From: Nitrospirota bacterium
GTDB lineage: Bacteria > Nitrospirota > UBA9217
Direction of reading: 5' to 3'
NCBI GenBank assembly: GCA_963818475.1
Contig: CAWFSF010000002.1
Location: 96,001-160,000, forward strand
DNA length: 64,000 bases
Part shown: positions 3,403 to 58,983 of the stretch, piece after piece
Position numbering within the stretch: the first letter of the stretch is position 1
Layout of the letters: each line of letters opens with the position of its first letter
The notes under the pieces: generated by a model
Seen by the model: the letters and a program-made list of their open reading frames with translations, nothing else
The model's database searches: none
What the model was told of the DNA's origin: nothing
Made by a program: the position numbers and the translations under genes

Positions 3403-3916
3403 TTAACCACGGAGACACGGAGGCACGGAGAAAACATAATTGCAGCTTTGTGATAAGAAGTCCGGCTAGAGGACCAGCCTCTTAATTCCTTCCTTGATGA
3501 GACGCGAATGAAAATTAAGGATCAAACCAACTTTCAAACCTGACAGCCTAAGATAGGTCAAAAGCTGAGCTTCATGGATAGGTATTATCTTCTCAACACA
3601 TTTAATTTCAATAACCACCTTGCCGGCAGCAACCACGTCCATTCGATAACCGCAATCGAGCGTTATGCCTTTATACTCCAGGGGCAAAGCCCTCTGTCTC
3701 TCGACATGCACGTTCTGCAGCTTTAATTCGTGGCAATAACACTCCTCATATGCTGACTCCAGCAGACCGGGACCGAGATGTCTATGGACTTCCATGGCAC
3801 AGGCTATAAGCTTTTCTGTCAACTCTTCCTGCTGCAGCATGATGGCGCCCCACCTTCTGAGGATCACTGGCTGCCGAGCATCGGCAGTCTCCGTGCCTCC
3901 GTGACTCCGTGGTTAA
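3403..3916. mobile_element. Putative element with 29-bp terminal inverted repeats enclosing a GxxExxY gene
   Basis: Left arm TTAACCACGGAGACACGGAGGCACGGAGA (3403-3431); right arm (3888-3916) is its reverse complement with one mismatch. Interior is lower in GC than the flanking genes. Confidence 0.6.
3466..3840 (-). CDS. GxxExxY protein (PD-(D/E)XK nuclease superfamily)
   Basis: GPGLLESAYE motif, YRMD...VIEIK, HEAQLLTYL, GLILNF...GIKRLV; 124 aa from ATG at 3840. Confidence 0.92.
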   Translation of the reverse strand: MLQQEELTEKLIACAMEVHRHLGPGLLESAYEECYCHELKLQNVHVERQRALPLEYKGITLDCGYRMDVVAAGKVVIEIKCVEKIIPIHEAQLLTYLRLSGLKVGLILNFHSRLIKEGIKRLVL

Positions 3917-56451: not shown

Positions 56452-56769
56452 TTACGTCTTGATGAAGGAACAACAATAATCGGACAGTTTGGAAACCTTG
56501 AGCTTGAACTTTGAGTTGGCCGCGACCTCGAACGCTTCCCCGCCCTTCACGGCCTTCCAGGCGGCCTGTCCCGGCAGCAGCACCTCGAGCTCGCCGGAGA
56601 GGATCTCCATAAGTTCCTTGTCAGCGGTCCCGAACTCGTATTCGCCCGGCAGCATCACGCCGAGGGTCTTCTTCGATCCGTCGGCGAACAGCACGGTCCT
56701 GCTCACGACCTTGCCGTCAAAGTAGACATTCGCTTCACGGACAACGGTTACATTCTTGAATTCAGACAT
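56452..56769 (-). CDS. ppnP: Pyrimidine/purine nucleoside phosphorylase (DUF1255)
   Basis: [25 protein letters not shown]...E.MEI and YCCSF motifs. Confidence 0.9.
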
Positions 56770-56795
56770 AAGAGCACCTCCGCAAATCTTTTTTT

Positions 56796-57107
56796 ACCGC
56801 AGAGGACGCAGAGGAAGGCCAAATCCTTCACAATCCATTGACCATCCTCTTAATCCCTTCTTTCACATGCACGACATTGGAATTAGTGACGCAAACCGAG
56901 TGACTTCTTGCTCAGCTTAAGATATGAAAGGAGCTGTGCCTCGTGGATCGGTAGAATTCTTTCTACTTCTTTCAGTTCCACGCTCACAACATCTTCGACA
57001 ATACAACCAGCATCGATCTTCAAGCCATTTATTTTCCCCTGCATCCTCCGCAGTACTATGCCTTATTTCTCCTGCATATCTCTGTTTTCCTCTGTATCCT
57101 CTGCGGT
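56796..57107. mobile_element. Inverted-repeat element (CGCAGAGGA type) enclosing a decayed GxxExxY gene
   Basis: ACCGCAGAGGACGCAGAGGA ... TCCTCTGTATCCTCTGCGGT; AT-rich interior. Confidence 0.65.
56828..57029 (-). pseudogene. GxxExxY protein remnant (5'-truncated, internal deletion, frameshift)
   Basis: Manual translation NGLKIDAGCIVEDVVSVELKEVERILPIHEAQLLSYLKLSKKSLGL / NSNVVHVKEGIKRMVNGL* aligns with the C-terminal half of 3466..3840. Confidence 0.85.
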
Positions 57108-57121
57108 GAGCAGATTTGGAC

Positions 57122-58802
57122 TTACCTCGTCAGGTGCCGGTACTTGATCCGGTGCGGCTGGTCAGCCTCGGCGCCGAGCCGCTTTTTCCGGTCTTCCTCG
57201 TACTCGGAATAGTTCCCGTCAAAGAAGACCACCTTGCTGTCGCCTTCGAAGGCGAGGATGTGCGTGGCAATGCGGTCCAGGAACCAGCGGTCGTGGCTGA
57301 TGACCACGGCGCAGCCCGCGAAGTTCTCGAGCCCTTCTTCGAGCGCCCGCATGGTGTTCACATCGATGTCGTTCGTGGGCTCGTCCAGGAGCAGCACGTT
57401 CGCCTCTTCCTTCAGGATCCGCGCGAGGTGCACCCGGTTCCGCTCTCCGCCCGACAGCACGCCGACCTTCTTCTGCTGGTCCGTGCCGCCGAAATTGAAG
57501 CGCGACACGTAGGCGCGGGAGTTCATCAGGAGCTTGCCGAGCTGGACCTGCTCCTGGCCGCCGGTGATCACCTCCCAGATGGTCTTGTTCGGGTCGAGCA
57601 CGTCGCGGCTCTGGTCCACATAGCCCGAGCTTCACGGTCTCGCCGACCCTGATCGTGCCTTTGTCCGGCTTGTCCTGGCCCGTGATCATGCGGAAGAGCG
57701 TGGTCTTGCCCGCGCCGTTCGGGCCGATGACGCCCACGATGCCGCCAGGCGGGAGCATGAAGGACATACCCTCGACGAGGATGTTGTCGCCGTAGGCCTT
57801 GGTCACGTTGTCGGCCTCGATCACGACCTTGCCGAGCCGGGGTCCCGGCGGAATGTAGATCTCCAGTTCCTTGCCGCGCGCCTCGGTCTGCTGCCGGAGC
57901 AGTTCTTCGTAGGAGCTGATGCGCGCCTTGGATTTCGCATGCCTGCCCTTGGGCGACATCCTGATCCATTCGAGTTCGCGCGCCAGCGTCCTCTGACGGT
58001 CGCTTTCGGTCTTCTCCTCCTGCTTCAGCCGGTTGCCCTTCTGCTCGAGCCAGGACGAGTAGTTCCCCTTCCAGGGAATGCCCTGGCCGCGGTCGAGCTC
58101 CAGGATCCAGCCCGCGACATTGTCGAGGAAGTAGCGGTCATGGGTCACGGCGATGACCGTGCCCTCGTATCGCTGGAGGTGGTGTTCGAGCCAGGCAACG
58201 GACTCGGCATCGAGATGGTTCGTGGGCTCGTCGAGCAGCAGGATGTCGGGCGTCTGGAGGAGCAGCCGGCAGAGCGCCACGCGCCGCTTCTCTCCGCCCG
58301 AGAGGTTCTTCACCTGCGCGTCGCCTGGCGGACAGCGCAGCGCGTCCATGGCCATTTCAAGCCTGCTGTCGAGCTCCCAGGCGTTCAGGTGGTCGAGCTT
58401 CTCCTGCACCGTGCCCTGGCGCTCGATGAGCTTGTTCATCTCGTCGTCGGTCATGGGATTGGCGAAGCTCTCGTTGATCTTGTTGTACTCGGCAAGAAGG
58501 TCGACGGTCTCCTGCACGCCCTCTTCCACGAACTGGCGCACGGTCTTCTTCTCGTCGAGCTTCGGCTCCTGTTCGAGAAAGCCCACGCTATAGCCGGCTG
58601 AGAGCACTGCCTCGCCTACAAATTCTTTATCAACGCCTGCCATGATGCGGAGCAGCGAGCTCTTGCCCGAGCCGTTCAGGCCGAGCACGCCGATCTTGGC
58701 GCCGTAGAAGTAGGACAAATAAATGTCCTTCAGTACCGGTTTTTTGTCGTGGAGCTTTCCCACGCCGACCATGGAATAGATGATCTTGTTCGGTTCTGCC
58801 AT
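57122..58802 (-). CDS. ettA: Energy-dependent translational throttle protein EttA (frameshift near 57622)
   Basis: [53 protein letters not shown] and HRIKYR motifs. Confidence 0.93.
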
Positions 58803-58983
58803 AGAATGCTCTTGCGACCTCCTCAAAAATATAGGCTCTTTTGTACACTGTAATGAGGTAATGTGTCAACTGCTATTTCTGGGCGCGCATTGCCCGGCCA
58901 TAGGTTTTCTGCCGTATGATGCGCGTCATAGCAGGTTCCGGCGTCCAGGGTGTACACTGTTGCAATTACTCAGGAGGTGTGCT

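Follow-up and report, generated by a model that had tools for sequence, protein, structure and literature searches.

The Ssn systems, in the passages of PMC11893778 that describe them, consist of genes for small single-domain GIY-YIG nucleases with hairpin-forming NTS/SRM repeats on both sides and gene-less copies of the repeats in the genome; there are many nuclease/repeat pairs, each with its own specificity, and Ssn activity has been shown. In the REPIN/RAYT systems the RAYT is an HUH/Y1 transposase and the REPs are individually palindromic (PMC3337134, sections on RAYTs). A small ORF also occurs as an insert within a host transcript in the intervening sequences of 23S rRNA (S23p; PMC4990558, relevant part). 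The GxxExxY/PDDEXK_3 family (TIGR04256, PF13366) is listed in PMC3424549 with function unknown and with multiple transfers, and the passages on the family there make no mention of flanking arms. GxxExxY is not mentioned in PMC11893778 by full-text search, one literature passage naming it concerns a cas4-like gene, and no description of a link between GxxExxY genes and arms was found in the passages of the literature searched, which lay outside subscription journals and supplements.

Here we describe a decayed GxxExxY gene and its arms in a stretch of 64,000 nucleotides from a Nitrospirota bacterium (genome G000), referred to as the window, together with the family of elements to which it belongs. 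These cassettes resemble Ssn/SRM and RAYT/REPIN in logic, and the enzyme fold excludes them from both. Like the Ssn nucleases, the GxxExxY gene is repeat-flanked on both sides and has dispersed gene-less copies; unlike Ssn (GIY-YIG), GxxExxY is PF13366, with a predicted PD-(D/E)XK fold, and whereas the SRMs are, as far as they are described there, self-contained hairpins of 20–50 nt, the GxxExxY arms are tandem 8–10-nt units that pair only with the far arm. As in REPIN/RAYT, a single genome has several divergent genes with a repeat type for each, the systems persist vertically over long times, and intergenic space contains gene-less hairpins of two arms with variable spacers; gene-less doublets are also near-identical at new sites, although some of these lie within a separate TTAG frame (see below). 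Unlike a RAYT, GxxExxY is a restriction-fold nuclease whose gene lies within a single inverted pair and has reached new sites along with its arms; the PF01797 (HUH/Y1) hits of G000 lie elsewhere than in the cassette, and there is no DDE transposase gene inside it. The 23S rRNA intervening sequences differ in that the GxxExxY insert is in mRNA operons, here between ettA and a ppnP-like gene, has a nuclease fold and displays no G-U bias.

The remnant is flanked by two host genes on the minus strand, ettA upstream (ABC-F ATPase; 57122..58826, split by a 1-nt shift near 57625) and a ppnP-like nucleoside phosphorylase gene downstream (56452..56769), whose ribosome-binding site follows the right arm. 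The 355 nt from the ettA stop (57122) to the ppnP-like start (56769) contain a 21-nt inverted arm pair and a GxxExxY gene fragment. The outer left (5') arm (57087..57107, minus strand) starts 15 nt past the ettA stop and has two 9-nt units (CGCAGAG-GA-); it is complementary to the right (3') arm (56796..56816, plus strand) at 19/21 positions (90%), and the two arms are 270 nt apart. The inverted pair named in the preliminary description is real and corresponds to this outer arm, to which a second, decayed inner left arm has to be added (57032..57054, minus strand; 83% identical to the outer arm, with four transitions relative to an intact arm). The inner arm directly adjoins surviving coding DNA, and the large deletion starts immediately behind it. 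Together these features constitute a cassette, a gene between inverted arms of tandem 8–10-nt units with an arm type that matches the protein clade.

The gene fragment had been recognised as GxxExxY by minus-strand translation, which is correct and reads ...VELKEVERILPIHEAQLLSYLKLSKKSLGL and then, past a +1 shift, ...VKEGIKRMVNGL to a stop codon. The first surviving codons, NGLKIDAG (57006..57029, minus strand), correspond to residues 56–63 of the ortholog in G005, a genome of the same genus; they are followed by residues 68–105 (CIVED...ELK...HEAQLLSYLKLS...LGL; 56892..57005, minus strand) and, after the +1 frameshift near 56890, by a C-terminal fragment, NSNVVHVKEGIKRMVNGL, with a TGA stop (56828..56891, minus strand). 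The 53-aa frame at 56886–57044 matches TIGR04256 (E 3.1e-10, 40.4 bits against a cut-off of 35) and PF13366 (E 9.3e-9, 36.1 bits against a cut-off of 22; the G005 ortholog scores 145.6), so that both remnant and ortholog are family members by HMM, and PDDEXK_3 is the sole domain in the Pfam search. The claimed homology to the first GxxExxY protein of the window also stands, as tblastn with the 3469–3840 protein gives 42% identity (E 1e-6). That comparison element (3403..3916, minus strand) has an intact gene (3466–3840) between 29-nt arms of 8-nt CACGGAG units, which differ from the 9-nt units here as had been claimed; its gene is of another subfamily and shares 48% identity with the G005 ortholog.

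The loss of the 5' half and the frameshift had likewise been read correctly. Codons 1–54 are gone, and with them helix 1 and the GxxExxY motif, and a further 12 nt are missing in frame at 57006/57005, which deletes YRID and with it the catalytic, nearly invariant Asp67. The GxxExxY motif, E27 and D67 are thus all deleted here and all present in G005, and E27 and D67 are nearly invariant among 80 sequences; with these lost, and no open frame of about 125 aa carrying the set E27/D67/E77/K79, the remnant is a pseudogene. The deletions cannot be assembly errors, but the frameshift of one base near 56890 could be, as ettA next to it has a one-base shift too. Among 24 public read runs listed, none contains as many as half of the sequence words. 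In ettA one extra base in a G run at 57620–57630 splits the gene, and relatives' contigs in three of the four public read runs compared at the locus (which have no cover over 56817–57098) are without one base there, so the ettA shift is probably an assembly error.

The ppnP protein was searched in 61 genomes and 30 loci were examined, with ettA adjacent in 24. In G005 an intact gene of 125 aa is present at the same ettA-ppnP junction within the same arms, which fixes the history of the remnant as the decay product of a full element, as had been proposed. A metagenome locus (L062) has a near-full ortholog upstream of ppnP with the same arm type, two tandem left arms and point lesions; another (L061) has a gene-less hairpin of this arm type at an unrelated site. 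The remnant clusters with G005 and L062 (SH-aLRT 96; quick tree, 182 proteins), all three having 9-nt GAG arms, and the window's first gene is placed far from them. At the other ettA-ppnP loci read there is a short spacer, a different gene, a repeat of 7-nt units or a gene-less hairpin with another unit, and these varied inserts indicate that the site has been hit repeatedly. At three of them (L004, L011 and L021) GTAG-type palindromic repeats are located beside a 7-nt arm.

The gene fragment is 78% identical to G005, and the right arm with its outer flank is identical at 31/32 nt. Across residues 68–105, 15 codons are identical, 18 differ synonymously and five non-synonymously; over all 56 comparable codons there are 23 synonymous and nine non-synonymous differences, compared with 30:17 in ppnP and 21:3 in ettA. 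The synonymous excess (23:9) indicates that the gene was functional through most of its divergence from G005 and died late, and the codon counts show that purifying selection acted on it during most of the period after the two lineages separated. The alignment further shows helix 1, the GxxExxY glutamate and the putative catalytic Asp lost by deletion while the arms are nearly unchanged. The remnant is a dead copy of a cassette of gene plus arms that was passed on vertically, and the locus itself is an ordinary pseudogene of an unusual system.

Family-wide, arms flank 106/108 intact and 30/31 broken copies (the chance rate is 0.65% for the inverted-repeat score alone), as well as 150/179 copies from other phyla. 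Using quick protein trees and the 101 family rows with a typed arm, arm type requires 25 changes on the tree, compared with at least 56 in 200 shuffles, and the nearest neighbour from another genome has the same arm type in 82/101 rows (15.5% expected). Arm unit type and protein clade therefore co-segregate in the tree comparison that had been suggested, and the arm unit is inherited with the protein clade. This goes against the view of the remnant as an independent second association of gene and arms; within one old gene-arm system, it is better read as a separate insertion by another subfamily. Plain inheritance explains much of the co-segregation, since 93 of the 163 close pairs (at least 68% identity) are same-site orthologs. 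The other 70 are at different sites, and by our own count the core class is shared in 59 of the 66 that are typed, which indicates that gene and arms travel together. The pairs show that cassettes moved as units to new gene junctions in the past and then persisted at each site across species. No target-site duplication or clean empty/filled pair was found, the ettA-ppnP relatives being too diverged for an empty/filled comparison, and in no genome was a near-identical full cassette found at two sites; the closest paralogs in G000 are about 85% identical. In one genome (G081) three GxxExxY matches lie in tandem, about 1.1–1.3 kb apart (C3:169508–172251).

The genome of G000 contains 13 GxxExxY loci, 11 from the HMM search and two more from DNA comparison, of which six are open frames, three have one stop or shift and four are deletion remnants. 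All four deletion remnants keep both arms, contrary to the majority of armless remnants that had been named as a refutation. In one of them (C6:319052–319261) a 150-nt loop retains only the first and last ~15 codons of the gene, and such a shrunken loop shows that decay toward an 'empty' hairpin, as the preliminary description envisaged, is real. As the source of the window's empty hairpins it is not supported, because the other hairpins detected in the window all lack the 9-nt GAG unit. Nor does it look like the main origin of hairpins in the genome. By motif search the 4.7-Mb assembly has 140 short hairpins with this architecture and the reversed genome none, and in only 3/132 testable loops do gene ends score above the maximum of 2640 shuffles, one of the three being a local duplication; this count is a lower bound, the C6:319 kb case being absent from the hairpin set. 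At C2:774554–774806 a tandem duplication covers the final 42 nt of a GxxExxY gene plus the arm behind it, forming a hairpin with a gene end and no deletion. An HMM scan of 76 arm pairs missed short gene ends, and orthology and DNA search then gave two more remnants, so that still older traces could escape detection. Several gene-less hairpins are 95–97% identical over 110–190 nt at unrelated sites, and most hairpins look copied, not decayed in place, with decay as an apparently minor source.

The same picture is seen at 28 junctions that are occupied by a cassette in a relative. By inspection, the state in G000 is a full-length gene at five, a remnant at two, a gene-less hairpin of another unit at five, a 7-nt-type repeat at five and nothing at 11; a trace-free hairpin of the relative's own unit is present at none. 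In C6:313700–320700, which from its protein ends appears to be the NADH dehydrogenase operon, successive junctions carry an intact cassette, a remnant and two gene-less hairpins, and the loops of the latter two by eye start and end like the gene of that clade. The 9-nt GAG type is rare in G000 (3/140 hairpins), with two matches to the remnant's arm motif compared with 26 in G005. Arm matches are more numerous in those of the 41 family genomes that have an intact 9-nt-GAG gene (median 9 vs 1), kin among them being non-independent. There are two counter-examples: G014 (100% complete) has 32 arms of the 9-nt GAG motif and no intact 9-nt-GAG gene was found in it, and G015 has a gene of the remnant's clade and no arms.

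Some gene-less hairpins and one cassette remnant lie inside other miniature elements, and could therefore be moved without GxxExxY. Hairpins of several unit types occur interchangeably in a non-coding frame of 170–190 bp that has TTAG at each end (C3:160430–160610, C6:222191–222370, C6:2222430–2222610 and about 30 other sites), with 32–34 right ends in G000 and an exact end motif in 29/41 family genomes; many near-identical gene-less hairpins sit in it. No partner transposase for the frame was found beside the two Y2 or 11 Y1 genes of the 91%-complete assembly, which gives no Rep_trans hit. The deletion remnant at C6:2208990–2209280, 92% identical to the intact gene of G002 (L203), is enclosed in a miniature element that has terminal inverted repeats, at a site different from that in G002, and is apparently a cassette moved as cargo. 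In two regions, C2:540294–540495 and around C2:497999, a short module is inserted inside the arms of different hairpin types.

These elements raise the possibility that the nuclease binds the arms without moving anything, either restricting or processing arm-bearing single-stranded DNA in the manner of Ssn or regulating itself, while other transposases move cassette and hairpins as cargo. The near-identical copies that end at TTAG frames and the changed site of the remnant at C6:2209029 are what such transport would leave, and up to 24/70 gene-less hairpins have the frame end motif nearby by a loose match; for SsnA, moreover, the relevant passages of PMC11893778 report modulation of transformation and do not show transposition. 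The remaining 46/70 hairpins are without the motif, however, and the frame was found beside none of 139 GxxExxY genes (with two weak single-motif hits), yet 70 close pairs are at different sites. We consider transport purely as cargo unlikely.

The predicted model of the 125-aa protein (pLDDT 96.8) has a PD-(D/E)XK fold with a helix at residues 3–21. A fold search returns only middling PD-(D/E)XK matches, the best of them BpuSI (Z 8.1, rmsd 2.8, 93 aligned) and Cas4 SSO0001 (Z 8.0, rmsd 3.2, 99 aligned), and a PDB sequence search with the protein finds no relative. Within helix 1, residue 8 tracks the core of the arm unit: it is basic with xAAG and Gly, Glu or Asp with xGAG in 118/125 rows, the best of 130 columns, and xAAT arms, where residue 8 is Tyr or Phe, are outside this rule. 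The trend was examined in a held-out set of 179 intact genes from 194 new loci, mostly in groups centred on genomes of other phyla, of which 74 have xAAG or xGAG arms and a scorable N-terminus. It is weaker there than in the training rows, with a basic residue 8 in 14/31 xAAG compared with 2/43 xGAG genes (Fisher p 3.8e-5), which leaves 17/31 xAAG genes without one; residue 8 is the only one of 20 N-terminal positions that is significant in this direction, and the adjacent residue 9 (offset -13) has the opposite trend (p 0.023). We rejected DNA mimicry at codons 7–8, because synonymous codons are free there and the signal is in the protein and not in a hidden DNA unit; residues that track the unit period or the G/T core end were set aside as confounded with deep clades.

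Shared descent alone might account for both the co-segregation and residue 8, with the arms as hitch-hiking repeats that have no functional link to the gene, and it is true that many clade members are same-site orthologs and that well-supported independent switches are few: restricted to well-supported branches there are six independent pairs, 3.8 changing the same way and none the opposite way (p 0.125). With the first 11 columns left out of the tree, though, 22 independent pairs change 10.6 in the same way and 0.3 in the opposite way, and the held-out replication together with these contrasts singles out one column; the near-universal flanking by arms across the sampled phyla also speaks against mere hitch-hiking, which we regard as very improbable. 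Residue 8 likely marks direct recognition of the arms, by analogy with the Ssn or RAYT systems, and we infer that helix 1 reads the arm core through it.

The cassettes are inserted with a clear orientation, and an upstream sense ORF is present in 182/216, with only five having antisense alone. At the remnant, scans of 56700–57200 found no promoter or terminator, and the cassette is shown to lie in the sense direction directly behind a host stop codon, without a promoter-like site of its own. Such co-oriented, operon-internal positions invite the explanation that the arms act in mRNA, as a long helix that is removed by RNase III or shields the operon, as in ORF-bearing 23S rRNA intervening sequences, which have an enclosing stem; the gene would then be a passenger. 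The sense strand does fold, with the arms paired (z -2.64), the arms outlive the gene, and 7-nt-unit hairpins in G000 enclose TIGR02436 four-helix-bundle genes. The mismatches do not agree with it, as selection for pairing in the sense strand would favour G-U, and there are 66 G-U and 99 A-C mismatches in 112 cassettes and 19 and 21, respectively, in the arms of gene-less hairpins. A passenger, moreover, need not co-vary with the arm sequence, and the cassette has no Rfam match above threshold. An action in mRNA thus seems improbable. The 7-nt-unit elements (C3:7577–8153, C6:864422–864880, C6:1705705–1706142 and C6:1993523–1994046), with their many gene-less copies, form a parallel system in G000, and one of them sits at a junction that in a relative is taken by a GxxExxY cassette.

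On balance we lean slightly towards a direct role for the enzyme, in which the 125-aa nuclease-fold protein recognises the tandem units in the inverted arms that flank its own gene, cuts there and helps to spread both the cassette and the gene-less hairpins. The protein would bind the units and cut at the arms in a hairpin, cruciform or single-strand state, and host repair after cutting would copy the elements, as proposed for RAYT/REPIN and Ssn/SRM. Cassettes and gene-less hairpins would be copied into gaps behind stop codons, where host transcription would express the gene; the gene-less hairpins would be mostly non-autonomous copies, with a minority of in-place deletion products and some riding in other miniature elements. 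More tentatively, and with distinctly less confidence, we suggest that the GxxExxY proteins may form a very large family of 125-aa nucleases with sequence specificity, each mobilising its arm-bounded cassette and a swarm of gene-less hairpins. This would be a mobile-element class that a lone PD-(D/E)XK enzyme drives, with a simple helix-1 code at residue 8 that includes an aromatic for xAAT. If this were true, the remnant would mark how one specificity died out in G000 and its hairpin family collapsed.

The family evidence makes PF13366, a family of unknown function, directly testable, as a list of natural cognate pairs of enzyme and arm can be drawn up and specificity is predicted to follow one residue. 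If this is confirmed, these elements would extend the nuclease-repeat partnership of the RAYT and Ssn type to the restriction-enzyme fold, would explain an abundant kind of intergenic hairpin (140 in a 4.7-Mb assembly), and would offer very small sequence-specific nucleases.
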